Assembly (NCBI GenBank): GCA_964608995.1
Contig: CAZSQS010000001.1
Coordinates: 130,659-194,658 of the forward strand
From: an uncultured Smithella sp.
Lineage (GTDB): Bacteria > Desulfobacterota > Syntrophia > Syntrophales > Smithellaceae
DNA: 64,000 nucleotides
Direction: 5' to 3'
A program made the position numbers and the translations under genes. Positions 7,001 to 52,035 of the stretch are shown piece by piece (the stretch's first letter is position 1; each line of letters begins with the position of its first letter). The notes beneath the pieces were generated by a model, which worked only from the letters and a program-made list of their open reading frames with translations, did not search any database and was not told the DNA's origin.

Positions 7001-8897
7001 GGGGGGCGCGCTTCAGGTGGAGTCCCTTCCCCAAAAGGGCAGCGTTTTCTTTTTTGAGCTGGAGATGCCGGTATCGGCGCTTCCGGCGGACGCGGGCATA
7101 TCCTCTGACGTCAAGGATTCAAAGGGCGGCTCTGCCGAGTCTGCGCGGGCAGGCAAAACGAAGATTCCTGATTTTTCCGGCTATTCCATTTTGCTGGTGG
7201 AAGACAATATCTTGAATCAGGAAGTGGCCAAACGCTGGCTGGAAAAAACCGGCGTGACCGTCACCGTGGCTGCAAATGGCGCGGAGGCGGTGTCGCTCGT
7301 CGATCAAAGGCGATTTGACCTGGTCCTGATGGATTTGCAGATGCCGGTGATGGACGGCTTTGAGGCCACCCGGCGGATTCGCAAACGGCATCGGGAGCTG
7401 CCGGTGATCGCCCTGTCGGCGGCCGTTTTGGAGGCCGACCGGCAAAAGGCGCGCCGCGCGGGGATGAACGCGCACCTGGCCAAGCCGATTGATAAAAACG
7501 AATTGTACCGGAAATTATCCGGATGGCTAAGACCGATGGATGCGGCTTCGGGTGATGCGGCCCAAATTCCATGGCTTGAGGGGCTTGAAGGGTTTGATGT
7601 GGTCAGCGGGCTTGGGTTGGCCGATGGTGATCCGGCGTTTTATCTCACGCTTTTGCATCACTTTAACGATCAGCTGGCAGACGAATTTGCGGGCCTGGTC
7701 AAACCGCCGGAGGGAATGGATCGTTCTCAAGCGGCTAAAAAGGCTCATGCGCTCAAGGGGGAGGCCGGCGCCGTCGGTCACACACGTCTGGCTGACATGG
7801 CCGCCGAGATGGACCGCGCTTTCAAAGCGGGAGAGTCGATTTCCGAAACACGGCTAGGCGAGTTGCGTGCCACCATGGAAGATGCGCGTCAGCGGCTGGC
7901 CGAGCTGCCTGTATCTCCCGGCGTCAATGCGCATCGTAACGCCGATACCGCAGCGCAGGACGCAAACCGCAGGGGCGCAGGCGAGGGGGAGGCGGCTAAA
8001 CCCGTTGTGCTGATCGTTGACGATCAACCCGCCAATCGCATGGTTTTATCCAAGCTGCTCAAAGACGACTATGCCATTGTGACGGCCGAAAGCGGCGCCG
8101 AGGCGCTACAGATCGCGGCGGGCGAACGTCCGCCTTCGCTCATGCTGCTGGACATTGAAATGCCGGACATGGATGGTTACGAAGTCTGCCGCAGGGTGAA
8201 GGCCAGTGTAAAAACCAGCGGCATCGCCGTGATTTTTGTGACCGGCCGGGATTCCGCACAGGATGAAGAGATGGGGTTTTCCCTGGGGGCGGTGGACTAT
8301 ATCTCCAAGCCCTTCCAGCCCGGCATTGTCCGCGCGCGTGTGCGCAATCACATCAACCTGAAAATTCGAACAGACCTGTTCGAATTGCTCTCCAGCCTCG
8401 ACGCGCTGACCAATATTCCCAACCGGCGCAGCTTCGAGGAGCATCTGGCCCGGGAATGGGCGCGCGCTGCGCGCAAAGGACAGCCCCTGTCGGTGGCGAT
8501 GATGGATATCGATCATTTCAAACTCTACAACGATCACTACGGCCACGGGGCGGGCGATGATTGCCTGCGCCTGGTTGCAAGGACGTTGAAGAAAACGCTC
8601 ACGCGTCCCACAGACATCATCGCCCGCTATGGGGGCGAGGAGTTTGTGGCACTGCTGCCGGATACGGATGCTAAGGGCGCTCGGCATATCGGTGAGCAGA
8701 TGCGCTCCGCCGTTGAGGCGGCGGCCATTGCCCATGACCATTCTCCCACGGCGCGCGTGGTGACCTTAAGCGTTGGCATGGCCACGCAGGTCCGGAAAGG
8801 TTCAAAAGACGCTGCCCGGCCATTGATCGATGCCGCCGATGCGGCCCTGTACCGGGCCAAAAGCTCCGGGCGAAACCAGACCTGCACAGCGGACTGA
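4011..8897 (+). CDS. Multidomain hybrid sensor: DUF1638-like, GAF-like, 3x PAS, HisKA/HATPase, REC, HPt, REC, GGDEF
   Basis: N-terminal VIACSVLKPEL...YHLQPEKL...FEDC...FVYLDTG (DUF1638-like); H-box FLANMSHEIRTPMN; GGTGLGL G2 box; LVLMDLQMPVMDG; HPt AHALKG; LMLLDIEMP; RPTDIIARYGGEEF. Confidence 0.93.
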   Translation: MIDTPITVIACSVLKPELTALRKKGTISFPVRFVSSKYHLQPEKLARRLTALVQKERASGARVILMFEDCFAGMSDLTTGADVVRVAGVNAAEMLLGKERYLSFVRGGAFFLFPEWVTHWEGILSVFPGMDAESQKALMRSNHTRFVYLDTGVIAVPFGKLQACSDFFGLPFEVVETGLETLAGALREALARLRTSGAPQRPASGDSGAAALMMLDVLATVLKNPGSLSETVARLSRKIRELTGSRMVILALKNESKSPSSAIRLLSVYPERHAAVGQTQAVRQILEASFGMDSATVLPGCPDPEEKTPARGKPCLVLPIKSPTERIGTIVSIGLLDESFVAPILNISDILSSAVAVVLTNALLLEAQSKNQRRLENEIEEHRLLFEHAVSAIAVHEIVLDEAGRPVDYVFLSANPAFEAHTGLKVADVIGRRASDILPGIEKTPFIDLYGRVALSGKPISFEQYSDVLKRHYFISAYRVGPGRFATAFTDMTARKKAEAELTDALEALKDREERINLMMEATDEGFWFWNRLTHELKFSASMLRHLGFDDDGAGFSYQWFADSIHKNSVSVFDTALNDYLTGKSKYYEFQYLIKAKNGQWRWFWARGACTAYGPDGSPQKFMGTHRDITEQKKLGKEREAAQEALRQKSEELERYFTSSLDLLCIADTEGHFLRVNPEWGNVLGYSAGELHGRRFLDFVHPDDLAATLSVISDLEAQNDVLSFENRYLGKDGAYRWIEWRSKPQGNLIYAAARDITARKNAELNLLEINQRLEKAMGRAKEMARQAGKANRAKSEFLANMSHEIRTPMNAVISLSRLLLETPLDDDQRDCLNNINASSRMLMGIINDILDYSKIEAGKLELDHSEFRINDLLEQMKSLFASAAADKRLQLVFEAAQDLPSVVVGDFLRLAQVLSNLMGNAVKFTRQGFVTLRISRTGGDDTQALLCFEVSDSGIGLTQAQIRRLFKAFSQGDSSTTREFGGTGLGLSISQKLVERMGGALQVESLPQKGSVFFFELEMPVSALPADAGISSDVKDSKGGSAESARAGKTKIPDFSGYSILLVEDNILNQEVAKRWLEKTGVTVTVAANGAEAVSLVDQRRFDLVLMDLQMPVMDGFEATRRIRKRHRELPVIALSAAVLEADRQKARRAGMNAHLAKPIDKNELYRKLSGWLRPMDAASGDAAQIPWLEGLEGFDVVSGLGLADGDPAFYLTLLHHFNDQLADEFAGLVKPPEGMDRSQAAKKAHALKGEAGAVGHTRLADMAAEMDRAFKAGESISETRLGELRATMEDARQRLAELPVSPGVNAHRNADTAAQDANRRGAGEGEAAKPVVLIVDDQPANRMVLSKLLKDDYAIVTAESGAEALQIAAGERPPSLMLLDIEMPDMDGYEVCRRVKASVKTSGIAVIFVTGRDSAQDEEMGFSLGAVDYISKPFQPGIVRARVRNHINLKIRTDLFELLSSLDALTNIPNRRSFEEHLAREWARAARKGQPLSVAMMDIDHFKLYNDHYGHGAGDDCLRLVARTLKKTLTRPTDIIARYGGEEFVALLPDTDAKGARHIGEQMRSAVEAAAIAHDHSPTARVVTLSVGMATQVRKGSKDAARPLIDAADAALYRAKSSGRNQTCTAD

Positions 8898-9462: not shown

Positions 9463-10287
9463 GTGAAACGAACGGACATCAAACGAAAAGGCGGGGTCAT
9501 GATGTTATTGAATACCACTCATCTGAAATCATTAATTCGAACTGTCATTTTTTTTATACTTTTTATTTCGACAACATCTGCTTATGTCAAGGCACAAGAC
9601 GCACATGAGATTCAAAACGATATTAAAAAGACATTGCGAGCCTTTAATTATTCAGAAAGCGAATCGGCCATCTTCGAGAAACTTGATGCTTTTCTGCTCA
9701 AAGATTATGGATACACAAACAGGGAATATCTGGACTCCCTGACGGAGCTGGGTATGGATTTATCCGAAGCGGTAAAGGCGATGAATTCCTGTATTGAGGA
9801 AGCGACCGATTACGAGAACCAATTCTCGCGAGAGTGGATCAATGATCTTTTAAGACAGTTTGACAAAGAATATATCCATAAAAATGAGTCTTCCATCCAG
9901 ATTATCCTATATGCGCTATGGGTCAGGGCGTATTACGCTTCCTGTAAAGAAATTGAAAAAGAAGTCATCCACAAGGAAATGCTTTATATGGAGATACGAG
10001 CAAACTACGTTAAATATTTTCTTGAATTTGCGGAAACGCTTGATGATAAGGAAAAAGATATATTTAAAAACAGAATCGCCTATGCTCAATATGTCAATAC
10101 CTTGCCGGATAAAAGTTTAAAGCAACTTCTTGCGGGCAATGGCATCCGGGTTGCCTTATCCTCAAGAGCCGTGAAGACACGAAAAGACGTTGATCCCAAA
10201 CTGGCAGCGTTTTTTTCTCATCATCCGTTCTTCTCCAAGCCGTTTGATCGATTACGTGCGATAAAGGAAATCCGGAAGATTAAATAG
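9463..10287 (+). CDS. Orphan exported, predominantly helical hypothetical protein (start may be 9499)
   Basis: 274-aa ORF with a hydrophobic N-terminal signal (TVIFFILFISTTSAYVKA-Q); AT-rich codon usage. Confidence 0.75.
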   Translation: MKRTDIKRKGGVMMLLNTTHLKSLIRTVIFFILFISTTSAYVKAQDAHEIQNDIKKTLRAFNYSESESAIFEKLDAFLLKDYGYTNREYLDSLTELGMDLSEAVKAMNSCIEEATDYENQFSREWINDLLRQFDKEYIHKNESSIQIILYALWVRAYYASCKEIEKEVIHKEMLYMEIRANYVKYFLEFAETLDDKEKDIFKNRIAYAQYVNTLPDKSLKQLLAGNGIRVALSSRAVKTRKDVDPKLAAFFSHHPFFSKPFDRLRAIKEIRKIK

Positions 10288-17457: not shown

Positions 17458-18180
17458 TTATTCCTTTACTTCTGGTGGCGCCTCGGAGACGTCCAGAAGC
17501 TCCACTTCATAGATCAGCAGGCTTCCGCCCGGAATGACGGGCGGATTTCCCATGTCGCCATAGGCGGTCTCCGGCGGGCAGTAAAATTTTGCCTTGCCGC
17601 CGACTTTCATGAGTTCCACACCTTCCGAAAAACACTGCAGGATTTGTCCCACAATATACTCCGAGGGCTTCTCGCGTTTGTAAGTGCTGTCAAATTCCTT
17701 TCCATTGATAAACGTGGCCGTGTAGTGAACCTTAATTTGCTTGCCTTCGGTGGGTTTGGCTCCGGCGCCCGCCGATATTTCCTGAAAAACAACACCCGAG
17801 GCGGTTTTTTTTGCGCCTTTTTCCGAGGCGGCTTTTTTGAGATACTCAAGCGCGGCCGCTTTGCGCTTTTCACGGCGCTCATCGATAATTTTGCGAAGTT
17901 GCGGCATGCTGGCGTCCGGTTCCGTGGCCAGTTTGTTGCCCGCCACCGCATCGGCCAGCCCCATTTGAACATATTTCCCCTCTTCGGGTGTCAGTTCCAG
18001 CTGGTAGGCGTCTCGATGCATAAACACTCCCAGCGAATAAAAGGCCTTCTCGTCGTCGTTTTTCAGAACGATCTCTGAGGCCTTGTCCTTTGCCTCCTTC
18101 GCAGAAGGCGCAGGAGATTGAGAGCAGGCGCACAAAACCGAGAGGGCGACTACAATCATCATCATGTTCCGGATCATCAT
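17458..18180 (-). CDS. FKBP-type peptidyl-prolyl isomerase (FkpA/Mip-like), lipoprotein signal
   Basis: LSVLCAC lipobox; VKVHY-like IKVHYTATFINGKEFDSTYKR; MKVGGKAKFYCPPETAYG...IPGGSLLIYEVELL. Confidence 0.93.
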   Translation of the reverse strand: MMIRNMMMIVVALSVLCACSQSPAPSAKEAKDKASEIVLKNDDEKAFYSLGVFMHRDAYQLELTPEEGKYVQMGLADAVAGNKLATEPDASMPQLRKIIDERREKRKAAALEYLKKAASEKGAKKTASGVVFQEISAGAGAKPTEGKQIKVHYTATFINGKEFDSTYKREKPSEYIVGQILQCFSEGVELMKVGGKAKFYCPPETAYGDMGNPPVIPGGSLLIYEVELLDVSEAPPEVKE

Positions 18181-18332: not shown

Positions 18333-18365
18333 AAAAAAATCCGGGTGGATTTTCATCCACCCGGA
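18333..18365 (-). terminator. Intrinsic terminator of hydrolase copy 1
   Basis: Minus strand CCGGGTGGAT-GAAA-ATCCACCCGG followed by ATTTTTTT. Confidence 0.85.
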
Positions 18366-18421
18366 AAGGGTTTCTTCCTCTGAAAGTTCAACCAGAGGAT
18401 AGGGTTCAAGGTTAACCGGGG

Positions 18422-19438
18422 CTAGATGCCGGAGGTTCTCCACGTCAAAGCGTCGCTCGGTCTCTTGATGTAAGTCTTCCAGCGGGTGTCGCCATCGAGA
18501 TACGTCTTCTGGAAGGCCAGGGCCAGAGCGCCTGCGTTCGGTGCGAAAACCGTATCCGGCCCGCCCCAATCAAAGTGACCGGCAATCGAGATGACATAAA
18601 GCGCTTTTGGAATACCGCGCGGAATCGCGTTGTAAACGCTTTCCGACTGATACATGCCGCCCAGAACCGTCAAATCCGTTGCGCCGTTCATGAGCAGCAT
18701 CGGGCACTTGGTGTAGCGGCCGCTTTTGTAAATACTGGTTGCGGACAGGTTGTGGCCCGCCAGAGACATGGCCGTTTTCGGACCGGTTTTGGCTGCGTTA
18801 ATCCAGGTGGCGCCGCCGCCCATCGACCAACCCAACAACCCGATTCTGCTGGTGTCGAGTTTGCCCTTAAGCGCATGGCCGTTGCGGGTGTTGAGTTTCT
18901 TGAGCGCATTGTAGGCGCTCCACTGCAGGGAGGCTCTCAGATCCACGGTATCCATCGTGGTGGCCGAATCGCAGTTCACATAAACGATGCCGTGCGAGGC
19001 AAAGAAGGGGCCCCAGTCGGAGTTCGCCGCCTGTGTTCCCATGAAGGGCTGCATGAAGATGAGGGCGGAGAAAGGCGGCGTGGCGTTTTGCGGAATGTAG
19101 ATGGACGCGCTGGCTGTAAATCCGGGGAAGTCACTGGTTCTGCTGGAGCCGTAAGGGCCGCTTTTGCTTGTCGATTTTGGTGTATCATCGCGGCAGATCG
19201 CGCCTGCGGGGCATCCGGGAATCGATCCGGACGAGCTCGATGAACTGGACGAACTCGATGAGCTCGTGGAGTACCACCACGACGAACCTGACGACGAACT
19301 GGACGAACTCGATGAACTGGAGGAACTGGTGGAGAACCACCACTGGGCATCACAGGTTGACGCGGTTGCGCCCGCTAAAAACAGGCACACAAACGACAGA
19401 ATTAAAAAACTCGTAACTGACTTTCTTTTCATAACCAT
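18422..19438 (-). CDS. Secreted PETase/cutinase-like (polyesterase-lipase-cutinase family) alpha/beta hydrolase, copy 1, with WW-polySer N-terminal tether (homologous start 19432)
   Basis: Signal peptide; WGPFFASHG, GKLDTSRIGLLGWSMGGG nucleophile elbow, NGATD (Asp), AGHF (His), LDGDTRW. The motifs are collinear with Ideonella PETase (WGPRLASHG, GKVDTARMGVMGWSMGGG, MDNDTRY), recalled from memory. Confidence 0.88.
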   Translation of the reverse strand: MVMKRKSVTSFLILSFVCLFLAGATASTCDAQWWFSTSSSSSSSSSSSSSGSSWWYSTSSSSSSSSSSSSGSIPGCPAGAICRDDTPKSTSKSGPYGSSRTSDFPGFTASASIYIPQNATPPFSALIFMQPFMGTQAANSDWGPFFASHGIVYVNCDSATTMDTVDLRASLQWSAYNALKKLNTRNGHALKGKLDTSRIGLLGWSMGGGATWINAAKTGPKTAMSLAGHNLSATSIYKSGRYTKCPMLLMNGATDLTVLGGMYQSESVYNAIPRGIPKALYVISIAGHFDWGGPDTVFAPNAGALALAFQKTYLDGDTRWKTYIKRPSDALTWRTSGI

Positions 19439-19648
19439 TTCCCTTCCGTTGAATGATAAGAGTTTTTTTGTTTTCGCGGCCCTTGCACTCTAATCCTCAG
19501 ATGGCAAAGTTCGCCCCTTTACGCGTTGTCTGTTTTCGGCCTTGGCTGACCCCCTGTTTCCAATAGTCCCTTTATCTCAAATAATAAAGTGGTAACGCTG
19601 TTTCGTTTTTACTATTTCCTGCAAATATTTAAATATATTTTATAAAAT

Positions 19649-19664
19649 TGCATGAAGTGTGCCA
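19649..19664 (-). promoter_or_regulatory. Sigma-54 (-24/-12) promoter of hydrolase copy 1
   Basis: Minus strand TGGCACACTTCATGCA = GG-N10-GC with TGGCAC; about 210 nt upstream of the start. Confidence 0.8.
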
Positions 19665-19760
19665 TGTTTGCTATAGTCATGTTATGTATCTGTATCTTTT
19701 AACGTATTTAATTATACGATGAACGGACGTTCATTTTTGCTTTTCAAAACCGTCTCAAAA

Positions 19761-19813
19761 GTGTTTCGTAAAAATTAAAAATGGGACACAAAATGGGACA
19801 CATTGTGGGGCGT
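19761..19813. promoter_or_regulatory. Candidate enhancer (UAS) array for a sigma-54 activator, copy 1
   Basis: GTGTTTC at 19761; ATGGGACAC at 19781 and 19793 (12-bp period); degenerate third unit at 19805. Confidence 0.6.
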
Positions 19814-19880
19814 TTTATCCGGACGCAGGCATTTCCCGACCTTTCAGTGAGGCTTGTCACGCAAAAAATTGTCACAAAGT

Positions 19881-19915
19881 AAAAAAATCCGGGTGGATGT
19901 GAAATCCACCCGGAT
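19881..19915 (-). terminator. Intrinsic terminator of hydrolase copy 2
   Basis: Minus strand ATCCGGGTGGAT-TTCAC-ATCCACCCGGAT followed by TTTTTTT; homologous to 18333-18365. Confidence 0.85.
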
Positions 19916-19965
19916 GGGGTTTATACCTCTATATGAAAGCAGAGGGGTTGTAAGGTTGACCGGGT

Positions 19966-20958
19966 CTAGATGTCGGAGCTTCTCCACGTCAAGGAATCGA
20001 GCGGTCTCTTGATGTAAGTCTTCCAGCGGGTGTCGCCATCGAGATACGTCTTCTGGAAGGCCAGGGCCAGAGCGCCTGCGTTCGGTGCGAAAACCGTATC
20101 CGGCCCGCCCCAATCAAAGTGACCGGCAATCGAGATGACATAAAGCGCTTTTGGAATACCGCGCGGAATCGCGTTGTAAACGCTTTCCGACTGATACATG
20201 CCGCCCAGAACCGTCAAATCCGTTGCGCCGTTCATGAGCAGCATCGGGCACTTGGTGTAGCGGCCGCTTTTGTAAATACTGGTTGCGGACAGGTTGTGGC
20301 CCGCCAGAGACATGGCCGTTTTCGGACCGGTTTTGGCTGCGTTAATCCAGGTGGCGCCGCCGCCCATCGACCAACCCAACAACCCGATTCTGCTGGTGTC
20401 GAGTTTGCCCTTAAGCGCATGGCCGTTGCGGGTGTTGAGTTTCTTGAGCGCATTGTAGGCGCTCCACTGCAGGGAGGCTCTCAGATCCACGGTATCCATC
20501 GTGGTGGCCGAATCGCAGTTCACATAAACGATGCCGTGCGAGGCAAAGAAGGGGCCCCAGTCGGAGTTCGCCGCCTGTGTTCCCATGAAGGGCTGCATGA
20601 AGATGAGGGCGGAGAAAGGCGGCGTGGCGTTTTGCGGAATGTAGATGGACGCGCTGGCTGTAAATCCGGGGAAGTCACTGGTTCTGCTGGAGCCGTAAGG
20701 ACCACTCTTGCTTGTTGATTTTGGTGTATCCTCGCGGCAGATCGCGCCTGAGGGACATCCGGGAATCGATCCCGACGAACTCGATGAGCTCGATGAACTG
20801 GTGGAATACCACCACGTTGAACCTGATGATGAGCTCGATGAGCTGGAGGAACTGGTGGAGAACCACCACTGGGCTTCACAGGTTGACGCGGTTGCGCCTG
20901 CTAAAAACAGGCACACAAACGACAGAATCAAAAGGTTTTTAACTGACTTTCTTTTCAT
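19966..20958 (-). CDS. Secreted PETase/cutinase-like alpha/beta hydrolase, copy 2
   Basis: Same motifs as copy 1; catalytic core identical; shorter Ser runs; different C-terminal tail (RPLDSLTWRSSDI versus RPSDALTWRTSGI). Confidence 0.88.
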   Translation of the reverse strand: MKRKSVKNLLILSFVCLFLAGATASTCEAQWWFSTSSSSSSSSSSGSTWWYSTSSSSSSSSSGSIPGCPSGAICREDTPKSTSKSGPYGSSRTSDFPGFTASASIYIPQNATPPFSALIFMQPFMGTQAANSDWGPFFASHGIVYVNCDSATTMDTVDLRASLQWSAYNALKKLNTRNGHALKGKLDTSRIGLLGWSMGGGATWINAAKTGPKTAMSLAGHNLSATSIYKSGRYTKCPMLLMNGATDLTVLGGMYQSESVYNAIPRGIPKALYVISIAGHFDWGGPDTVFAPNAGALALAFQKTYLDGDTRWKTYIKRPLDSLTWRSSDI

Positions 20959-21188
20959 AAATTTTTCCTTCCATCTGAAATAATAAATGATGAATTTCCC
21001 CTTTGCGCAGGCCTCGCTCTCTCATCCTTCAGATCGCCGGGGCTGCCCCTTCTACGCGTTGCCCTCTCAGGTTCCAGGCAATATCAATCGCTATTTTGAC
21101 TGATCTTACCAATAAACAATCTCAAACAATCCGCATGCAGAATTGTTGTGATTGCTCACTGGCCTATCTTATTATTGTCAATATTGTA

Positions 21189-21204
21189 GGCACGATGTAT
21201 GCCA
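21189..21204 (-). promoter_or_regulatory. Sigma-54 (-24/-12) promoter of hydrolase copy 2
   Basis: Minus strand TGGCATACATCGTGCC = GG-N10-GC; same offset to the upstream repeat array as in copy 1. Confidence 0.7.
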
Positions 21205-21300
21205 AAACGTCATGAATTGTTCTATGTATTTGTAATAATTGCATTTATTAAATAAAGCCCTGAAAGAGCCTTCGCGGGTGAACCTGAAGCTGTTTTAAAT

Positions 21301-21353
21301 GTGTTTCATGAATGTCTAAAATGGGACACTTCGTGGGACACAATTTGAGACAT
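21301..21353. promoter_or_regulatory. Candidate enhancer (UAS) array, copy 2
   Basis: GTGTTTC at 21301; ATGGGACAC 21321, GTGGGACAC 21333, TTGAGACAT 21345 (12-bp period). Confidence 0.62.
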
Positions 21354-21560
21354 TTTATTGCGGGTCTTGCAGATTAGACTGTTGATTTGAACGAGATGTT
21401 GCGATTCCATTAAAACTGAAAAAGCGGCCATTGAAAAATTTCAACTGGCAAATGAGTCTCAAATATGTTTCAGTTTGTTGCACTTAAAAATATTAGAAAA
21501 CATAACGAAGGCCGAACGAAAACCCTCTTTTCAGGCGGTAAAAAGGAGAATTCAAAGAAC

Positions 21561-23723
21561 ATGGCCATCAATGTCAAGGAAGAAGCGCCATTATTACAGA
21601 TTGACAGTTTTTCCCTGAAAGATAATACGGAAAACATATCATCCGGATGGGATAAAATGCTGGTGGATGCCATCGACCCCTCTTCGGTCAGCATTCAGGA
21701 TCTCGTCAGCATTGTGCTTTGGTTTCTGGAAAAAACACAGGACGAATGGACGCGGTTCGTCAACGGGGCCGATGATCTGGAGAGTTCCGTCATTCCCGAT
21801 CATATTGCCGAGGCCTGGGGGCGGTGCCGCAGCCGCCGGATGGACCCTTTCATAACGGAGGCGCAAAATCAGGTTTTAACCGGGCAGGCGCTCGAGGCGC
21901 TTCTGACGCAAAACAGGACCCTGATTGAAATCAGCAGGCCCTTCATCACCAAACTTTTCCAATGCACCAATACCACAAGCTTTGGCGTGGCGCTTTTCGA
22001 CCGCGAGGGCTATCTTCTGGACGTTCAGTCGGATGAGCGGTTTGTCTCGGACAACGACAAAACCCGATGGATCTGCGGGGCGCGCTGGGCGGAGCAGGAC
22101 GCCGGGAATAATTCCATCGATTACGTGCTGCGTTATGGAAAGCCGATCCAGGTCCTGTGCACGCAGCATTACCTTCAGCGCCTCAAGGAGGTCACGGCGT
22201 CAAGCGCGCCCATTCATGATCCCGAAGGCGTTTTAATCGGCGGCGTGGCGCTGACCACCTTTTATTTCGGTACGCATCCCCACACACTGGGCATGGCGGT
22301 GGCCGCCGCCCAGGCCATTGAAAATGAGTTGCGCATCACGAAGGCCTTTGCCGAATGCCGGCGGGCTTTTTTTCAGGCGGATATGGCCTACGGCCTGCAA
22401 AAGGCGATTACCGACGCCATGACGGATGCGATTGTCGCCGTAAATACCGAAGGGCGGATCACGGCGATCAATCCCCGCGCCGAACATCTTTTTGGCCTGG
22501 ATTGTGAGGATGTGAAGGGAAAACATCTTCTGGATATCTATCCCGGCGCGGATAACCGCTATTTCTGGGATATTCTGCGCTCCGGCCAGGCCGTAAGCGA
22601 TGCGGAAGTGCAAATCCGCACCCTTTCGGGGAGGGGGGATTATACGCTGACGTGCAATCGCATCCTGTCTTCCGATGGCGCCGCTATCGGCAAAGTGCTG
22701 ATCTTTTCGGAAATTCGGAAAATCAAGTCTCTGGTCAACCGGTTTTCCGGCGCCAGAGCCAATTTCAAGTTTTCCGACATTCAGGGGAAAAACGAGAAGT
22801 TTCGGGCTCTGATCGATCAGGCGGGGATGATTTCAAAAAGCGCCTCCAATGTTTTGCTCCTTGGAGAAAGCGGCTCCGGCAAGGACATTCTGGCGCAGGC
22901 CATTCATAACGAAAGCCCCCGTGCAGACGGGCCCTATATCGCCATCAACTGCGCGGCCATTCCCCGCGATCTCATTGCCAGTGAGCTGTTCGGTTATGAT
23001 GAGGGCGCGTTTACCGGTTCGCGGCGCGGCGGCAATCAGGGAAAATTCGAACTGGCCGACGGGGGCACGATTTTTCTCGATGAAATCGCGGAAACCCCAC
23101 TGGAGCTTCAAGCGGCGCTTCTGCGCGTCATTGAAGACAAGTGCGTGGTCCGCATCGGCGGCAATTCCAACCGGGTGGTGGATGTCCGGATTATCGCCGC
23201 CACCAATAAGGACCTCTTCGAGGAGGTTTCCCGGGGCAATTTCCGCAAGGATTTGTATTTCCGGCTCAACGTGTTCAATCTTCATTTGCCGCCGCTTCGC
23301 GAGCGGACGGACGATATTGCGCTTTTAGTGGAGATATTCATGAAGAAGTATGCGTCCAAAATGGGGAAGTCCCTTCGCGGGGTGGATGATCGGGTGTGGG
23401 AGGTTTTTTTGCAGCATGCCTGGCCGGGCAATATCCGCGAGCTTCAAAATGTCGTGGAGCGCATGGTCAACTTTGCCACATCGGAGCGGTTAACGTATGA
23501 CCTTATTCCGCCCGAGATTACGGGGGTGGCTCGAAAATCCTACGGCAAACTCGATCTGGAATCGCCCGTGGAAACGGAAAAAAGGATGATCCGGCACATG
23601 CTGACGCTTCGCTACAGCCGCCAGAAAATTGCAAAACAGCTTAACGTGTCGCGCGCGACGCTGTTTCGGCGAATGCGCAAATACGGCCTGCTGGAAAAAG
23701 ACTTTCCACAAGATGCGCCCTGA
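21561..23723 (+). CDS. Sigma-54-dependent enhancer-binding protein, GAF-PAS-AAA+-Fis HTH (AcoR/DhaR-like)
   Basis: IAEAWGRCRSRRMDP GAF start, LLLGESGSGKD, ASELFGYDEGAFTGS, LADGGTIFLDEI, RKDLYFRLNV, WPGNIRELQN, IAKQLNVSRATLFRRMRKYG; AAGGAG RBS before ATG 21561. Confidence 0.95.
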   Translation: MAINVKEEAPLLQIDSFSLKDNTENISSGWDKMLVDAIDPSSVSIQDLVSIVLWFLEKTQDEWTRFVNGADDLESSVIPDHIAEAWGRCRSRRMDPFITEAQNQVLTGQALEALLTQNRTLIEISRPFITKLFQCTNTTSFGVALFDREGYLLDVQSDERFVSDNDKTRWICGARWAEQDAGNNSIDYVLRYGKPIQVLCTQHYLQRLKEVTASSAPIHDPEGVLIGGVALTTFYFGTHPHTLGMAVAAAQAIENELRITKAFAECRRAFFQADMAYGLQKAITDAMTDAIVAVNTEGRITAINPRAEHLFGLDCEDVKGKHLLDIYPGADNRYFWDILRSGQAVSDAEVQIRTLSGRGDYTLTCNRILSSDGAAIGKVLIFSEIRKIKSLVNRFSGARANFKFSDIQGKNEKFRALIDQAGMISKSASNVLLLGESGSGKDILAQAIHNESPRADGPYIAINCAAIPRDLIASELFGYDEGAFTGSRRGGNQGKFELADGGTIFLDEIAETPLELQAALLRVIEDKCVVRIGGNSNRVVDVRIIAATNKDLFEEVSRGNFRKDLYFRLNVFNLHLPPLRERTDDIALLVEIFMKKYASKMGKSLRGVDDRVWEVFLQHAWPGNIRELQNVVERMVNFATSERLTYDLIPPEITGVARKSYGKLDLESPVETEKRMIRHMLTLRYSRQKIAKQLNVSRATLFRRMRKYGLLEKDFPQDAP

Positions 23724-23778: not shown

Positions 23779-26373
23779 TCAGTTTGCCGCCATGGCTTGG
23801 TTCACCTTGCAAACCAGATTTCGGAGGCTGAAGGGTTTTTGCAGAAACTGCACGCCCTCTTCGAGGATGCCGTGACGGGCGATGGCGTCGGCGGTATAGC
23901 CCGACATGAACAGCACCTTGATGTCCGGCCGGATTTCAACCAGTTTGTCTCTTAATTCCCGGCCGCTCATCACCGGCATGACCACGTCGGTGATCACCAG
24001 ATCAATGCAGGTGGCTCTGTCTTGACACAGTGTGATGGCCTCTTGGGGCGTCTGGGGAACCGTGACGGCGTAACCGATGGATTCCAGCATATTTTTCGTG
24101 GCTTCCAAAACCATTCCATCATCTTCCACCAGCACAATGTTTCCCGTTGCCGAAAAGACCGGTTCTTCCGGAATCGCCTGATCGGCAATTTTTATTTCGG
24201 TGGTGCGCGGGAAGTAGATCGTGAAGGTGGTTCCCTGCCCCGGTTCGCTGTAAACGGAAATAAACCCGTCATTTTGCTTGACGATGCCGTAAACGGTGGC
24301 CAGTCCCAGCCCTGTGCCCTTGCCCGCTTCCTTCGTCGTAAAGAAGGGCTCAAAAATATTTTGCTGCATGTCCTTATTCATGCCGACGCCGTTGTCGCTG
24401 ACGCACAGCTGAACGTAGTAGCCGGGTTTCGCGCCGATATGCGCGCGGCAATAGGCCGCGTCCAGCACACAGTTGGCCGTTTCAAGCGTCAGCTTGCCGC
24501 CTGCGGGCATCGCATCCCGGGCGTTGACGGCGAGGTTCATGAGGATCTGTTCAACCTGTGACGGATCGAGTTTGATGGCCCAGAGGTCCTTGCCGGGCGC
24601 ATACTTGAACTGAACATCCTCCCCGATGAGGCGCACCAGCGCCTTTTGCGTATGTGAAACCAGATCGTTGAGATTGATAATTTTCGGGGCGATGATCTGC
24701 TTTCGGGAAAAGGCCAGAAGCTGGGCGGTAATATCGCGGGAACGGATGGCGGCTTTTTCAATTTCCGTGATATCTCTGAGCACGGGATGCTGCTGGGGCA
24801 GGCGCATCTTGGCCAGATCCACATAGCCCAGAATGACGCTCAACATGTTATTGAAGTCATGCGCCACGCCGCCGGCCAGCCGTCCGACGGTTTCCATCTT
24901 TTGCGCCTGGAGCAGTTGGCGCGCCAGTTTTTCTTTTTCTTCAACGGCCCGTCTGCGGGCGGTGATGTCCCGGCCCGCAAGCAATATGCCTGTGGGCCGT
25001 CCTGTATCGCTGCGGGAGAAGGTGGCCGAAACCTCCAGCCAGAGCGTATCGCCGTTTTTATGGTTCAGTTCCATTTCAACGGTTCTGATGCGGTGCGAAT
25101 CCAGGGAGGGGCCGCCCGCTTCACGGGCCAGCGCCGACGCCAGCGCGCTTTTGGCCGATGCGAAGGACTCCGGCGTTAAAAGCCGGTCCATCGGGATGTT
25201 CTCCATGTCTGCGGGCGTATAGCCGGTCAGCCATTTGCACGACGGACTGACGTATGTGCAGTTCAGATCAAGATCCGTCGTCAGGATGATCTCGTGGATG
25301 TTTTCAACGATCATCCGGTAGCGCTGTTCGCTTTCGCGCAGGGCCATCTCCATGGCCTTTTGTTCCGTGATTTTTCGGCCGACCAGGACGATTTCAAAGG
25401 GCCGGCCATGCGCATCGCGGTGAAAATAGGCTGTGAGCTCCTGCCAGAAAGTATGGCCGTCCTTGTGATACATCTCCAGTTCCACACTGACGGACGGCTG
25501 GGGCGCACGCGACGCGCCTTCGCCGAATTCCCGGTCGAAGGCGTCCGCCAGCATTCTTTCCGCCAGCGCATAAGAGGCGGGCGTCATCATTTGATTGAAA
25601 GGCAGGGCGATGGCTTCATCGGGGGTGAAGCCGCTGAAACGGATTTCCGACGGGCTGACGTAAGTCAGGTTGAGCTCGAGATCCATCGTGGAGATCGAAT
25701 CATGCATGTTTTCGATAATCAAGCGGTAGCGCTTTTCGTTGGCCTTGATCATTTCTTCCGTCTGTTTTTGGCGGGTAATGTCCCGCGCGACACCGACGAT
25801 CTCCAGGGGCGCGCCGTTTTCATCCAGGTGAAGCTCGGCGCTGACTTCCGCCCAGAAGCGCTCTTTGTTTTTCTTGGTGATCTGTGTTTTGAAAACGACT
25901 TTTGCGGGGTGTTGACTGCCGCTATGGGCGCAGGCCAGCTCCGAATCCAGGAGCGCCTGCGCTTTGGACCGGGCATCTGGCGGCAGGATATCTTGAATGG
26001 ACTCTCCCAGAAGATCATCGGGACGGACCCCCGCGATGGGCAGGACCGACGGACTGACATACGTTAACCGCCAGTTCAAATCCGCGGTCCAGATGATGTC
26101 AAGCGTGTGATCGGCAATCAGCCCGAGCTGCTTGTCGCGCTCCTGGACGGAACGCTCCGCCCAGGCTTTTTGAGCGGCGTCCTCTTTCAGGCGGGTGCTT
26201 TCAGCGTTATTTTGCGCTGCGGCCGCAAGGCAGGCATTGACGGCCCCGGCGATGGCCCCGAGTTCGTTATCGCCTGCCGTAAAGGACAGCCGGCCTGCGT
26301 AGTCGCCTTTTGCCGCTTTTTCAAGGGATTCAATGATTTGCTTCGCCAGATCCGTCTTGCGTGATGATGTCAT
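23779..26373 (-). CDS. Cytoplasmic hybrid histidine kinase (HAMP-like, 3x PAS, HisKA/HATPase, REC)
   Basis: GGVAHDFNNML H-box, [33 protein letters not shown]; no TM helix evident. Confidence 0.93.
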   Translation of the reverse strand: MTSSRKTDLAKQIIESLEKAAKGDYAGRLSFTAGDNELGAIAGAVNACLAAAAQNNAESTRLKEDAAQKAWAERSVQERDKQLGLIADHTLDIIWTADLNWRLTYVSPSVLPIAGVRPDDLLGESIQDILPPDARSKAQALLDSELACAHSGSQHPAKVVFKTQITKKNKERFWAEVSAELHLDENGAPLEIVGVARDITRQKQTEEMIKANEKRYRLIIENMHDSISTMDLELNLTYVSPSEIRFSGFTPDEAIALPFNQMMTPASYALAERMLADAFDREFGEGASRAPQPSVSVELEMYHKDGHTFWQELTAYFHRDAHGRPFEIVLVGRKITEQKAMEMALRESEQRYRMIVENIHEIILTTDLDLNCTYVSPSCKWLTGYTPADMENIPMDRLLTPESFASAKSALASALAREAGGPSLDSHRIRTVEMELNHKNGDTLWLEVSATFSRSDTGRPTGILLAGRDITARRRAVEEKEKLARQLLQAQKMETVGRLAGGVAHDFNNMLSVILGYVDLAKMRLPQQHPVLRDITEIEKAAIRSRDITAQLLAFSRKQIIAPKIINLNDLVSHTQKALVRLIGEDVQFKYAPGKDLWAIKLDPSQVEQILMNLAVNARDAMPAGGKLTLETANCVLDAAYCRAHIGAKPGYYVQLCVSDNGVGMNKDMQQNIFEPFFTTKEAGKGTGLGLATVYGIVKQNDGFISVYSEPGQGTTFTIYFPRTTEIKIADQAIPEEPVFSATGNIVLVEDDGMVLEATKNMLESIGYAVTVPQTPQEAITLCQDRATCIDLVITDVVMPVMSGRELRDKLVEIRPDIKVLFMSGYTADAIARHGILEEGVQFLQKPFSLRNLVCKVNQAMAAN

Positions 26374-27822: not shown

Positions 27823-29742
27823 TTAAGCCATGGTGCAGTTGCGGCCGCTTTCTTTGGCGCGGTAAAGCGCATTGTCGGCCGCTTGAATCAGCCGGTTAAT
27901 CTCTTCGTCCTGCTTGGGTGTCCAGCCCGCCACGCCGATGCTGGCGCGCAGAAAAATCCGCTGGCCGCCATGGATGAAATGAAGGCTTTCGATGGCGACA
28001 CGCGCGCGGTCGGCCACCATCAGGGCGTTTTCCGGATAGGTGGAAGGCAGCACGATGGCAAATTCATCTCCGCCGAAGCGGGCAATGAAATCGCCGGTTC
28101 TGCGCAACTGTTGCTTGAGCGTATGCGAGACCAGGCGCAGGCATTCGTCGCCCACCAGATGCCCATGATTATCATTGATGTATTTGAAGTTGTCCAGATC
28201 CACGATGGCCAGCGACAGCGGCTGATGGATGCGTGATGCGCGTTTGAGCTCTTCGGTCAGAATCCGGTCGAAATAGCGGCGGTTGTAGGTATGCGTCAGC
28301 GGATCGGTGATGCTCAGATTGGAAAGCTCCGTGTTGGCCTCCTCCAGATTTTTCAGGGCCTCACGCAATTCCTGCGTGCGCTCGCTGACGCGCTTTTCAA
28401 GCTCGTCGTTGGATTTTTGCTGCGTCTCCATGATCTGCGCCTGCATGGACAGCTTCTCGAGCTGCGACTGATTGACTTGCCGGGTGAGCTCCAGCGACTC
28501 TTTCTGAGCGATTTCACGGGCGGCGCGTTCGCGGTTGATCTGGTCGGCCAGCGCCAGCGACAGAAGCGTAAGCTCAATGACAAAGCCCCCCATCTGGCCG
28601 TAATCCGTAAAGAGGTTGCGCGGGATGACCCCTGAAAAGCCCAGAAGCATAACCGTTGTTCCCACGGCCAGAAAAGCGTAGGCGATCGTATAGTATTTGG
28701 CCTGAACGTTGCCTTTGAACCACAGATAAACAGAGGTGATCATGCCGGCAGCCGGACACAGCAGGGCCAATAACGTAACGATGGAAATATAGGCCGAATA
28801 CGATTGCAACGGACTGAGCAAGACGGCAATAATCCACAAAGCGACAAAGACATTGTTGAGATGCAAAAGCCAGCCGCCATAGCTTTTCAGGGACAGAAAA
28901 TAGCGCAGAAACAGCGTGGCCGACAAAAAGCTCAGCGAGGCAAAAAGCACATACGCGTGCTCGCGAAGCCACAGCGACGATTCCCACAGATAGCGCGCGC
29001 CCAGGCCGCCGGCCGACGCGATATAAAAAATGACGGTGAAGACATAGGCGGAATAAAACAGATAGTTGGTGTCGCGGGTCAAGACGTAAAGCGACAGGTT
29101 GTATAGCACCATGATGATGAGGATGCCGAAAAAAAGCCCTACAATGAGCGCGCGTTGATAATCATGCTGCCCGAAGGCGTCGGCGCGCCAGAGGTCGAGT
29201 CGGATAAACAGGCCCAGGCGTGATTCAACGCGCACATAAACGCTGTAGCGATCGCCGGGCGCAAGCGGCAGGGGAAACACAAAGTTTGCCTGTTTCAGGG
29301 GCCACTGGCCCAACCGGACCAGGTTGCCAGCTGTCTGCGGCCCAAGCCAGCGCCGTGTTTTATGGCTGTAAATATGGACGTCGATGCGGTCGAGCAGCTC
29401 CTGGCCGATCTCCATCCGCCAGTCCTGCTTTGTTCCGGAGCGATCCGTCAGGTCAAAGCGCAGCCACACCGGCGCATGGAAGTTGCCAAAATGGAAATTA
29501 GGGCCCGAGAGACGCTGCCACTGGGTCTCGTACTTCTTCCCGGAGACGGCAAGAGGCGTCAGCGGCTCAGGTTCCGCCAGGTATTCGACGGCGTCAACTT
29601 GCAGCCGCTGGGTGTCGGCCGACAAAGCAAAGTCCACGGCCCGGGCGTGCGTCGGCGCAAAGGCGAGAAAGAAAAAAAGCGCGATCAGTGCGCCGGCAAC
29701 ACGAATGCCGGCGCACCATAAAAGAGACGGTGTCTTTCCCAT
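27823..29742 (-). CDS. Membrane diguanylate cyclase, 7TMR-DISMED2 + 7TM-DISM + GGDEF (start uncertain; ORF open to 29856)
   Basis: NFHFGNFHAPVWLRFDL...LDRIDVHI DISMED2; GLFFGILIIMVLYNLSLY 7TM; TDPLTHTYNRR, RTGDFIARFGGDEF. Confidence 0.9.
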   Translation of the reverse strand: MGKTPSLLWCAGIRVAGALIALFFFLAFAPTHARAVDFALSADTQRLQVDAVEYLAEPEPLTPLAVSGKKYETQWQRLSGPNFHFGNFHAPVWLRFDLTDRSGTKQDWRMEIGQELLDRIDVHIYSHKTRRWLGPQTAGNLVRLGQWPLKQANFVFPLPLAPGDRYSVYVRVESRLGLFIRLDLWRADAFGQHDYQRALIVGLFFGILIIMVLYNLSLYVLTRDTNYLFYSAYVFTVIFYIASAGGLGARYLWESSLWLREHAYVLFASLSFLSATLFLRYFLSLKSYGGWLLHLNNVFVALWIIAVLLSPLQSYSAYISIVTLLALLCPAAGMITSVYLWFKGNVQAKYYTIAYAFLAVGTTVMLLGFSGVIPRNLFTDYGQMGGFVIELTLLSLALADQINRERAAREIAQKESLELTRQVNQSQLEKLSMQAQIMETQQKSNDELEKRVSERTQELREALKNLEEANTELSNLSITDPLTHTYNRRYFDRILTEELKRASRIHQPLSLAIVDLDNFKYINDNHGHLVGDECLRLVSHTLKQQLRRTGDFIARFGGDEFAIVLPSTYPENALMVADRARVAIESLHFIHGGQRIFLRASIGVAGWTPKQDEEINRLIQAADNALYRAKESGRNCTMA

Positions 29743-30170
29743 GCCGGTTCTTTTGCGCCTGAGCCGTGGAGGATGGGCGGGTGCATTTTTTAATAATGAC
29801 CGGCCTGTCCGGCCGCGATGGGGCGCTGTCACGCAGAGCATGGGCGTATCCTTCAAAACATTGAGCTACCGTCAGGGGGCAATCATCCTCTGTCCGGGGA
29901 TGGTTCGCGCTTTGGCGCAAGGCATTCCTTTTATCCATTCGGCTCAATCGCGATGAAACTTGAATCCAAAGGCATCCTGACCGGCACAAGTCGCGCTTAA
30001 GGGCCTGTCAACGCATACGTCTTGAGGCTATCGCTGGCCGCCTCGAAGATGCGCAATAAATGATTTTCCATGGAAAAGCAAAAGAATCCTTGGAATGACG
30101 CGGGAAATATGTATATTAAGACAACAGAAATTTGGAAAGAGGATTTGGGAATTTTCTATGGAGGTCATCA

Positions 30171-49980: not shown

Positions 49981-50741
49981 TATGGCGTCGCTTTGAACTC
50001 CGGCTGAATGTCTTTGATGCAGACCGTATCGGAATTACGATGCGCGTCGTAATTCCGGATGATGATACCTCGGACGGTATCGATGAGCGCCTGACGATTT
50101 TCGAGGGTATAACCTGTTGTGTCAATGGGCTTGTCGATCACCAGTTTGATTTTGCCCGGTCGGATCTGGAGAGAGCGTTTCGGCATGATTTCGCCGCTGC
50201 CGATGATGCTGATCGGGACAATCGGCGCGCCGGACTGAATGGCCAGATAAAACGTACCGGGCTTGAAAGGTTTGATTTCGCCGTTTCGGCTGCGCGTGCC
50301 TTCCGGAAAGGTCATTACGGATTTGCCCCGCCGGATATGCTGGGCGGCCACATCCAGGCTTTGCAGCGCCTTTTCATGATTTTGCCGGTCTATTTCGATA
50401 TATCCCGCGCTGCGCATCGCCTGTCCGAAAATCGGAATCGTGAATAATTCCTTTTTCGCGATCCAGCGAAACTGGCCGGGAACGTGCGCCAGCACAATGA
50501 GAATGTCAAAGTCGCTCTGATGATTGGCCATCAGCACCTGGGGCCGATGATGCAGAATGTTTTTGCCCCCGATGACCTCAACCTGGGTGGCGCAGATGAA
50601 CAGCAGAACCCGGCTCCAGATGTTGGCTACTTTGTGGATATTATTTTCGGCGTTGCGAAAAAAAGAAAAGACAACGGCCCAGAAGGAAAAAAATCCGGTG
50701 ATGGCTATGCCTAGTGCGACAAGGAGTCCCGAACGTATCAT
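49980..50741 (-). CDS. plsC: 1-acyl-sn-glycerol-3-phosphate acyltransferase
   Basis: ANHQSDFD, FIDR-like IEIDR, FPEGTRS. Confidence 0.92.
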   Translation of the reverse strand: MIRSGLLVALGIAITGFFSFWAVVFSFFRNAENNIHKVANIWSRVLLFICATQVEVIGGKNILHHRPQVLMANHQSDFDILIVLAHVPGQFRWIAKKELFTIPIFGQAMRSAGYIEIDRQNHEKALQSLDVAAQHIRRGKSVMTFPEGTRSRNGEIKPFKPGTFYLAIQSGAPIVPISIIGSGEIMPKRSLQIRPGKIKLVIDKPIDTTGYTLENRQALIDTVRGIIIRNYDAHRNSDTVCIKDIQPEFKATP

Positions 50742-51165: not shown

Positions 51166-52035
51166 ATGGACCTTTTTCTACAGCAGATTTTTAATGGAAT
51201 AATGTTGGGCAGTACATATGCCATCGTCGCACTGGGGTTGACGCTGGTTTACGGTATTTTGCATGTGCCGAATTTCGCACACGGGCACATGTACATGCTG
51301 GGGGCATACGTCTGCTTCTTTTTAATCACGATTTTTGGTTTTGCCTACTGGCCCGCCGTGGCGATGGCGGCGATTCTTCTGGGGCTGGCCGGTGTCGTAC
51401 TCGAATTTCTGGTCTATAAACCCCTTCGTAACGTGGGGGGCATCACACCGTTTATCGCGGCGCTGGGCGCCCTGATTGTTCTGGAAAACGCAGTCATCGT
51501 TTTGTGTGGCCCCGAGGGGCACCGCATCCCCAATCCGTATCCCGGCAATATGGACGTATTCGGTATTACCATGTCCACGCAGCGCCTGCTCGTTATCGGG
51601 GTTGCGTTTCTCATGATCATTTTACTTCAGATCTTCATTAAAAAAACGACGCTGGGCAGCACGATCGAGGCGGTTGCCCAGAACAAGGAAGGCGCAACGC
51701 TGGTGGGCATCAATGTCAATTTCGTATCCGCCATGACCTTTGCCATTTCAACGGCCCTGGCTGCGATCGCTGCCTGCATGGTTGCACCCATCTTTATGAT
51801 TTCACCGAGCATGGGTTCCCTGGTCGGATTAAAATCTTTCGTTATTGTTATTCTCGGTGGATTGGGCAGCATTCCCGGAGCCATTGTCGGTGGCTTGATT
51901 CTGGGATTAATTGAAGCCATCGGGGGCGGCTACTTATCCGCTGCTTACAAGGATGTTTTTGGTTTCGGTGCGCTGGTGCTGATCCTGGCCATAAAGCCAA
52001 CCGGATTGTTCGGGAAGGAGATTAAGGGCAGATGA
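51166..52035 (+). CDS. livH: HAAT-family ABC permease (LivH-like)
   Basis: NGIMLGSTYAIVALGLTLVYG...NFAHG; VILGGLGSIPGA. Confidence 0.88.
   Translation: MDLFLQQIFNGIMLGSTYAIVALGLTLVYGILHVPNFAHGHMYMLGAYVCFFLITIFGFAYWPAVAMAAILLGLAGVVLEFLVYKPLRNVGGITPFIAALGALIVLENAVIVLCGPEGHRIPNPYPGNMDVFGITMSTQRLLVIGVAFLMIILLQIFIKKTTLGSTIEAVAQNKEGATLVGINVNFVSAMTFAISTALAAIAACMVAPIFMISPSMGSLVGLKSFVIVILGGLGSIPGAIVGGLILGLIEAIGGGYLSAAYKDVFGFGALVLILAIKPTGLFGKEIKGR

Follow-up and report, generated by a model that had tools for sequence, protein, structure and literature searches.

A putative sigma-54-controlled module of twin secreted PF12740 hydrolases in a Smithella genome

Genes and control elements at the locus

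A stretch of 64,000 nucleotides from an uncultured Smithella sp. (contig CAZSQS010000001.1, positions 130,659 to 194,658; hereafter "the window", whose own numbering is used below) contains two tandem genes for secreted hydrolases and a divergently oriented activator gene. The two hydrolase genes, hydA (18422-19438) and hydB (19966-20958), both lie on the minus strand as monocistronic open reading frames (ORFs) of 338 and 330 amino acids (aa), and each encodes a serine hydrolase of Pfam family PF12740. Head-to-head with hydB, on the plus strand, stands a sigma-54 activator gene (21465-23723) with an ORF of 752 aa. No further copies of the hydrolase or the activator were found elsewhere in the window.

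Both hydrolases begin with a signal sequence that has a K/R-rich n-region, a hydrophobic core, and a cleavage-type site of the form ...A|Q (by inspection only), which agrees with the secretion proposed in the first-pass annotation. For hydA, the Sec-type signal peptide MVMKRKSVTSFLILSFVCLFLAGATASTCDA, also read by inspection, occupies 19346-19438 on the minus strand and predicts a mature N-terminus of QWW; it is kept in the homologues P0002 and L009 and forms a helix over residues 9-28 in the AlphaFold2 model. An alternative hydA start at 19432 would give the N-terminus MKRKS. The shorter 210-aa gene call P0001 begins at an internal Met, and the homologues back the full-length ORF with its signal peptide.

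Following the signal peptides, both proteins carry a low-complexity extension (19223-19345 in hydA and 20770-20871 in hydB, both minus strand) made of two tandem WW[FY]ST-polySer-GS units. The Ser tracts of hydB, with 10 and 9 residues, are shorter than those of hydA, with 13 and 12. Since the Ser residues are encoded by a mixture of TCN and AGY codons, selection on the protein is indicated rather than slippage. Residues 28-69 of HydA have a predicted local distance difference test score (pLDDT) below 50 and are predicted to be disordered, and the nearest Smithella homologues (P0002, L005, and L009) bear QWW(W)-polySer tails that are shorter. These Ser/Trp-rich tails may be surface- or substrate-anchoring peptides. 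Separately, the homologue P0016 has a Trp-rich C-terminal tail, PDYPWWYWWR, and the closest homologue, in L005, is interrupted within its poly-Ser tract by an in-frame TGA (~10140-10150), which is either the mark of a pseudogene or a sequencing or assembly error in a low-complexity stretch.

Each hydrolase gene is framed by its own control elements, all on the minus strand. Strong intrinsic terminators follow hydA (18340-18365; 11-bp stem and T7) and hydB (19887-19915; 12-bp stem and T7). Sigma-54-type -24/-12 promoters precede them: TGGCACACTTCATGCA at 19649-19664, 226 nt upstream of the hydA ATG, and TGGCATACATCGTGCC at 21189-21204, 246 nt upstream of the hydB ATG. The two elements have the forms TGGCAC-N5-ATGCA and TGGCAT-N5-GTGCC and are both correctly oriented. 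The pattern TGGCAY-N6-TGC occurs six times in the window against 1.5 expected, a count reached in none of 100 shuffles. Two matches lie away from the module, at 10140-10154 (plus strand), upstream of an OEP/TetR/HlyD/ABC efflux cluster that runs from 10542 onward, and at 51209-51223 (minus strand), upstream of a gene ending at 50741; these are possible further sigma-54 promoters.

About 125-135 nt upstream of each -24 element lies a repeat array that we regard as a putative upstream activator site (UAS). In front of hydA (19761-19801, minus strand), two exact 12-nt direct repeats, GTGTCCCATTTT, occupy 19778-19801 and are joined by an inverted GTGTTTC half-site at 19761-19767. The site in front of hydB (21301-21354, minus strand) falls within the intergenic region shared with the divergent activator gene and consists of TGTCTCA/TGTCCCA/TGTCCCA with 12-nt spacing and inverted arms (21311-21354), again with an inverted GTGTTTC half-site (21301-21307); it includes GTGTCCCA-N4-GTGTCCCA at 21322-21341. 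Of the five matches to GTGTCCCA in the 64 kb, where 1.0 would be expected, four are in these two arrays. Thus, every part of the layout first described for this locus (tandem secreted hydrolases, terminators, -24/-12 promoters, repeats, and a head-to-head activator) is found in place.

The two long 5' leaders also share a conserved island 40-100 nt before the ATG (19475-19528 for hydA, matching 21005-21062 for hydB; minus strand), with the consensus CAACGCGTA.AAGGGGC...ATCTGA.GGAT.AGAG.GC.AGG. A riboswitch or other leader RNA was sought in these leaders of ~210-230 nt and rejected: Rfam at permissive E-values returned only a chance His_leader match over the hydA terminator, and the islands fold with z-scores of -0.16 and +0.55. 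With Rfam blank and z-scores near zero, a structured leader RNA is unsupported. As a side observation, the region upstream of the closest Smithella hydrolase (L005, 9300-9760) has two sigma-54-like promoters, TGGCATGCATCATGCT and TGGCATGACATCTGCT, each followed by a conserved element of ~100 nt (CCCCTTAGTCC..CCGG..) with a terminator-like hairpin at its end. This element, which has no significant Rfam match, is possibly a small RNA or a leader that acts by attenuation.

Comparison of the two units shows uneven divergence. A block of 699 bp (18458-19156 and 20002-20700, minus strand) is 100% identical between hydA and hydB, while the coding sequences outside it are 90% (5' end) and 81% (3' end) identical and the upstream regions only 54% identical overall. 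Within these diverged upstream regions, the conserved islands are the repeats, the -24/-12 element, the ribosome-binding site, and the one leader island. At the protein level, the mature catalytic domains are identical, and the differences are limited to residues of the signal peptide, the lengths of the Ser tracts, and four residues at the C-terminus. Therefore, the description of each gene as a complete unit stands insofar as each has its own terminator, promoter, and repeats, but the 699-bp identity beside 54% upstream identity means that the two are not independent copies. The pattern fits an old duplication in which the cores would have been homogenized by gene conversion and the control elements held by selection.

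Enzyme family and active site

Both hydrolases pass the Pfam model PF12740 ("PET hydrolase-like", named for polyethylene terephthalate [PET]) with 98.6 and 98.3 bits against a cut-off of 28 (E 5e-28), and the alignment covers profile positions 31-248 of 263. The best sequence matches in the Protein Data Bank (PDB) are PE-H (3.6e-25) and IsPETase (~1e-21). The AlphaFold2 model, built on 69 homologues, has a pLDDT of 86, and its top Foldseek matches in the PDB are IsPETase, PE-H, Ple629, and PET30 (E ~1e-20, template modeling [TM] score 0.86, 27% identity). Among the 50 Foldseek matches shown, all are PETase, PE-H, cutinase, Ple629, PET30, or 7vpb ("novel hydrolase"), with TM scores of 0.79-0.87. 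The assignment to the polyesterase-lipase-cutinase family is thus borne out, with IsPETase structures, rather than anything outside the cutinase/PETase clade, as the best structural hits. That the two proteins are secreted PF12740 serine esterases is, in our assessment, near-certain.

The catalytic motifs listed in the first-pass annotation can all be read in that order from the translation: DWGPFFASHG, GKLDTSRIGLLGWSMGGG, NGATD, AGHFDW, and YLDGDTRW. The triad S205/D255/H288 aligns to S160/D206/H237 of IsPETase and is invariant in the 69 homologues, and the GWSMGGG nucleophile elbow is intact. Furthermore, W204, M206, and F132 align to W159, M161, and Y87 of IsPETase, with F132 in the context Q-P-F (P-P-Y in the family consensus), compared with [PG]-G-[YF] in the oxyanion-hole motif of PET hydrolases. 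The alignment with PE-H agrees with these residue assignments.

Other hallmarks of PET hydrolases are missing. At the position of the clamp Trp (W185 in IsPETase), phmmer against PE-H and BLASTP against IsPETase both place His229, and the His229-Asn230 pair is invariant, as G-H-N, in all 69 sequences of the subclade. The C203-C239 disulfide is absent, its aligned positions being N252 and D290, as is the C273-C289 disulfide, since the tail DGDTRWKTYIKRP is without Cys and no Cys occurs after residue 244. The C-terminal motif is DGDTRWKTYIK instead of DxDxR(Y)xxFxC, and a conserved CPxGAICR motif marks the mature N-terminus. In a published classification, only variants with the full M5 motif, including the clamp, the Met, and the C-terminal Cys, degraded PET, and the lower-motif "pseudo-PETases" probably act on other substrates (PMC12224614). 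Under that scheme, the missing clamp Trp, disulfides, and C-terminal motif make the present enzymes pseudo-PETases. Consequently, the earlier label "PETase-like" holds at the level of the family and fails at the level of the clamp, both disulfides, and the DxDxR..FxC tail.

The subclade is not small: about 240 relatives were found at E <=1e-5 in a protein search, and homologues with 50-70% identity are common. No characterized or solved member was found in searches of the PDB, the literature, and annotations. The Ketobacter PET hydrolases 403, 409, and 412 were considered as members and rejected, the Ketobacter PETases modeled in PMC13020383 retaining the clamp Trp; they are probably paralogues separate from the Ketobacter members of the subclade, in a comparison that did not include the sequences of these three themselves.

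Activator pairing, genomic context, and proposed function

The activator has Pfam domains PAS, Sigma54_activat (PF00158, E 1.8e-64), AAA_lid_14, and HTH_50/HTH_8. Its parts are a GAF-like sensor at ~106-303, PAS at ~311-417, an AAA+ domain with Walker A GESGSGK at 467, the GAFTG loop at 514, and Walker B DEI at 539, and a C-terminal Fis-type helix-turn-helix (HTH) at 703-742. Pfam calls no GAF domain in it. However, residues 106-746 align end to end with positions 15-641 of 643 in the NCBIfam DhaR model, residues 106-303 alone match the N-terminal sensor of that model (E 1e-20), and residues 106-358 match the solved GAF-like/PAS sensor of DhaR, 4LRX (E 5e-7). Given these matches, the description of the protein as a GAF-PAS-AAA+-HTH activator of the DhaR/AcoR type is acceptable, with the GAF part resting on DhaR and 4LRX and the remainder on Pfam. 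It is not an equivalog of DhaR by score (368.8 bits against a cut-off of 551), and dhaKLM genes were not found in the window. The first ~90-100 residues of the ORF are unmatched in homologues, and the true start may therefore be Met33 (21561).

We then compared the locus with related genomic loci, of which the nearest to the window's hydrolases are in Smithella/Smithellaceae metagenome-assembled genomes (MAGs). The related contigs L001-L004 carry genes for pyruvate:ferredoxin oxidoreductase and for proteins of the Fe-S/NADH-dehydrogenase type, and the anaerobic host proposed at the outset is likely. A homologous activator adjoins one to four hydrolase genes, mostly in divergent orientation, in 10 of 12 informative Syntrophales loci, of Smithella, Smithellaceae, and Syntrophaceae (L001, L002, L005, L006, L008, L009, L011, L015, L018, and L042; the near-duplicates L003, L004, and L007 were counted with L002). 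The activators share 36-51% identity over the sensor and 46-62% overall. Flanking genes vary among these loci, and the kinase, major facilitator superfamily (MFS), and ABC-2 neighbors seen in the window are not conserved. Since the pair is kept while its flanks differ, it travels as a unit. Outside Syntrophales, in the orthologue loci of Gammaproteobacteria, Clostridia, Syntrophomonadaceae, Desulfatitalea, and myxobacterial MAGs, the activator is absent throughout. We also observed that the DhaR-like activator family is expanded in Smithella, with three copies in L005 and two each in L009 and L018, around single hydrolase genes.

The control elements recur as well. TGTCCCA/TGGGACA arrays and TGGCAY-N5-TTG[CT] promoters are found upstream of hydrolases in L001, L002, L011, L015, L021, and L042, and in L001 this holds also for a fourth, separated hydrolase copy. 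With the repeat motif defined from the window itself, 19 of its 56 matches in 278 kb of Syntrophales sequence lie 100-600 nt upstream of hydrolase genes, a zone that makes up 3.4% of that sequence (binomial p 1.6e-14). The proposed sigma-54 link between activator and hydrolases is thus supported by what Smithellaceae loci have kept: the pairing, the promoter type, and the repeat motif. Judging from these sequence patterns, we consider control of hydA and hydB by the activator and sigma-54 to be probable.

The neighbors of the orthologues bear on the substrate. A gene for the Lif chaperone (PF03280) adjoins the orthologue in eight gammaproteobacterial loci (four Microbulbifer, one Teredinibacter, two Halioxenophilus, and one Gynuella); the Lif-paired loci are these eight (L023, L025, L026, L028, L029, L030, L033, and L037) and L054, in Cellvibrionales-like Gammaproteobacteria, plus Smithella L012 (12223-12906). 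In the latter, the subclade hydrolase comes first, a canonical PF12740 enzyme (296 bits) next, and Lif last. We know of no description of Lif paired with PETase-family enzymes. Smithella L018 has a Lipase_2/Lipase_C/AF_1763-like lipase after the hydrolase, and a second activator paralogue there is divergent from a gene for an AMP-binding acyl-CoA synthetase. Elsewhere, an Abhydrolase_3 esterase, a type-B carboxylesterase, and AraC regulators are found beside orthologues. Taken together, these neighbors suggest a secreted lipase or aliphatic esterase, and the emphasis on PETase and polyesters in the first-pass annotation is not supported.

Some neighbors have a looser connection. Downstream of hydA, and separated from it by the hydA terminator, is a gene for an FKBP_N+FKBP_C peptidyl-prolyl isomerase with a lipoprotein-like signal (17458-18180, minus strand). 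The same neighbor stands directly downstream of the hydrolase in L005 (11069-11782) and L041 (625-1305), from the closest Smithella MAG, with 61-63% identity. The isomerase could be a periplasmic folding helper or merely inherited synteny, and the association is weak. In eight Ketobacter-type loci (L013, L014, L016, L017, L020, L022, L024, and L031), a conserved protein of 224-270 aa with an N-terminal membrane anchor, a helical body, and no Pfam family is encoded downstream of the hydrolase match, at a distance of ~20-140 nt. An analogous role as accessory factor is possible for it; as a divergent Lif it was rejected (hhalign probability 0.3%). Membership in the module was also rejected for the window's hybrid histidine kinase (23779-26373), MFS transporter, and ABC-2 permeases, which are not conserved beside hydrolases elsewhere, the sole exception among these neighbor types being a generic kinase ~8 kb from the hydrolase in Desulfatitalea. 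More broadly, the window is unusually rich in signaling genes: these include a 1628-aa protein (4011-8897, plus strand) with DUF1638, PAS, histidine kinase, two receiver domains, Hpt, and GGDEF, a GGDEF protein (27823-29856), and three PAS hybrid kinases (23779-26373, 54579-56819, and 57053-59794).

Smithella-type lineages live by syntrophic oxidation of fatty acids and alkanes. On balance, and with moderate confidence, we favor a module in which the activator switches on the sigma-54-driven production of a secreted lipase or aliphatic esterase, not a PETase, that feeds such a fatty-acid-oxidizing syntroph. In this mechanism, the one-component activator, with its GAF-like and PAS domains, would bind the TGTCCCA half-site arrays ~130 bp upstream of the two -24/-12 promoters. 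When its signal, a small molecule or a partner, is present, it would spend ATP to open the sigma-54 holoenzyme complex, and the two monocistronic genes would then be transcribed, in vivo dependence on sigma-54 being predicted from the promoters. Their product would be essentially the same Ser-Asp-His carboxylic-ester hydrolase, exported by Sec and presumably beyond the periplasm, where its disordered Ser/Trp-rich N-terminal tail may tether it to a surface or to the substrate. Extracellular hydrolysis of aliphatic esters (triacylglycerols, wax esters, cutin/suberin-type esters, or aliphatic bio-polyesters) would release fatty acids and alcohols, which would be oxidized syntrophically. For an aliphatic lipid or ester as the actual substrate, taken as a separate part of this reading, we judge the case to be evenly poised. 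The induction by a hydrolysis product that was originally put forward was pure conjecture and finds no support here.

Several observations weigh against this proposal. The closest solved polyester hydrolases are only 27-30% identical to the enzymes. Within the 64-kb window, there is no rpoN, and there are no genes for type II secretion or fatty-acid catabolism (beta-oxidation), nor is there a Lif gene, by a hidden Markov model search of the six-frame translation. E. coli DhaR senses its protein partners DhaK and DhaL and not a small molecule, so that a small-molecule effector is not guaranteed here. In addition, the exact TGTCCCA motif is missing 100-600 nt upstream of the hydrolases in five activator-bearing loci (L005, L006, L008, L009, and L018), and L005 instead has repeats of a related variant, GTGTTTCA, further upstream and beside its activator gene; the site definition is therefore loose. 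Such variant sites would be consistent with paralogous activators that recognize related half-sites. Two further points, a glycoside-hydrolase neighbor in Smithella L009 and the 699-bp identity, belong to the alternatives considered below.

The first of these alternatives, which we hold to be unlikely although it fares best, is that the enzymes take part in polymer breakdown by attacking plant cell-wall esters (cutin/suberin, acetyl-xylan, or feruloyl esters) and not lipids. PF12740 includes cutinases, orthologues occur in the polysaccharide degraders Microbulbifer, Teredinibacter, and Clostridium manihotivorum, and the L009 hydrolase lies directly upstream of a gene for an 845-aa GH62+GH10 arabinofuranosidase/xylanase, a hint at cell-wall esters over lipids. 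Nevertheless, a glycoside-hydrolase neighbor occurs in this one locus only, while Lif and lipases are more frequent, and the window has no carbohydrate-active genes.

A much less probable alternative is that the twin enzymes are genuine depolymerases of aromatic polyesters (PET or polybutylene adipate terephthalate type), similar to IsPETase or LCC. Their best sequence and structure matches are indeed PET hydrolases, and they share the Met of GWSMGGG and the Trp equivalent to W159, with an aromatic side chain where IsPETase has Y87. This is outweighed by the invariant replacement of the clamp Trp185, the loss of both disulfides, the altered tail, and the reported restriction of PET degradation to full-M5-motif variants (PMC12224614), as well as by a Pfam score of 98 bits against 296 for the canonical paralogue in L012 and by the Lif and lipase neighbors, which indicate lipids.

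Equally improbable, in our view, is that the activator does not control the hydrolases at all, its adjacency and the motifs being left over from tandem duplication and common ancestry. The units are duplicated, so their common upstream islands could be residual homology, and the loci that have the activator without the exact motif fit this explanation. Yet the repeats and the -24/-12 elements were kept while the upstream regions fell to 54% identity, the pairing persists at 36-62% activator identity amid unrelated flanks, and hydrolases of other genomes, among them the fourth copy in L001, again have the motif and the promoter upstream. Least probable of all is that the twin layout is partly an assembly artefact, of one gene or of two diverged genes with collapsed cores: the 699-bp identity beside ends that are 80-90% identical could be an assembly effect in what is probably a metagenome assembly, but the two units differ in their flanks, the lengths of their Ser tracts, their promoters, and their terminators, related genomes as a rule carry two to three tandem copies with 74-84% identity between copies, and gene conversion is the ordinary explanation.

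Smithellaceae are regarded as secondary syntrophs that feed on the products of others. If the activator-switched lipase or esterase module works as proposed, Smithella-type syntrophs would be primary hydrolyzers of extracellular esters and not only consumers of supplied fatty acids and alkanes, and this role would alter models of how carbon from fats, waxes, and biodegradable polyesters moves through digesters and anoxic sediments. A broader and more doubtful extension, which we offer tentatively, is that Smithellaceae use an enlarged set of secreted PF12740 hydrolases whose subclade is new in function and whose copies each have a sigma-54 activator of their own. These enzymes, with His-Asn at the clamp position, the CPxGAICR motif, and Ser/Trp-rich tails as anchors, would directly depolymerize extracellular lipids, wax esters, cutin/suberin, or aliphatic bio-polyesters without oxygen, and the paralogous activators would each sense a different released alcohol, ketone, or acid. 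Were this so, an obligate syntroph would possess a depolymerase regulon that senses its products, and anaerobic polyesterases would have a new source. The invariant His-for-Trp exchange offers a clean test of the part that the PETase "clamp" position plays in substrate choice, and the cassette of activator, UAS, and promoter is a candidate biosensor for whichever ester-derived molecule it detects. For the mining of plastic-degrading enzymes, there is also a caution, in that a Pfam "PETase" match and a PETase as the top structure do not make a PET hydrolase.

Relation to known systems

The enzymes share with IsPETase (6EQE and 6KUO) and with PE-H of Halopseudomonas aestusnigri (6SBN) the fold, the triad, the GWSMGGG elbow, the W159 equivalent, DxDTR, and a secretion signal. 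In contrast to both, they have His-Asn at the W185 position, no disulfides, the CPxGAICR motif, a Ser/Trp-rich tail, and an anaerobic syntroph as host. Streptomyces exfoliatus LipA and Moraxella Lip1, which are family III bacterial lipases, belong to the same Pfam family. The lipA gene of S. exfoliatus has its own adjacent activator, LipR (PMC12134079). This is a close likeness, of a secreted PF12740-type lipase with a dedicated adjacent activator; however, LipR is a LuxR-family protein that acts at a -35-type promoter and is not a sigma-54 enhancer-binding protein.

With respect to control, the nearest parallel is in Pseudomonas, whose secreted lipase genes are driven by sigma-54 and NtrC-family activators (LipQ/R and CbrA/B) at a UAS (PMC12134079). 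The -24/-12 promoter, the upstream activator site, and the enhancer-binding protein of lipA/lipH are matched here, and Lif is linked to the Pseudomonas genes, as it is in the gammaproteobacterial orthologues and in Smithella L012. The Pseudomonas lipases belong to families I.1/I.2, and their activator is a phosphorylated two-component response regulator, whereas the window has PF12740 enzymes, a one-component GAF-like/PAS activator, and no Lif. Among one-component activators, E. coli DhaR, AcoR, and MimR have the same domain order as the window's activator (GAF-like, PAS, AAA+, and HTH), and the activator homologues of L001-L004 carry Pfam MimR_N. Unlike these regulators, the window's activator appears to target secreted hydrolases, and no dhaKLM, aco, or mim genes lie nearby.

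The statement that no regulon of this form has been described is therefore too broad in one respect, given that sigma-54 and NtrC-family proteins drive secreted lipases in Pseudomonas (PMC12134079), and it survives in a narrower one. Literature searches on sigma-54 with polyester hydrolases, on Smithella with PETase, and on lipase chaperones with PETase returned nothing matching this arrangement, a search on MimR yielded no relevant paper, and a one-component DhaR-like activator with PF12740 hydrolases in syntrophs was not found described. Relative to the systems above, the new features are the one-component sensor-activator, the His-for-Trp subclade, the monocistronic tandem copies with full control regions, and the host lineage.

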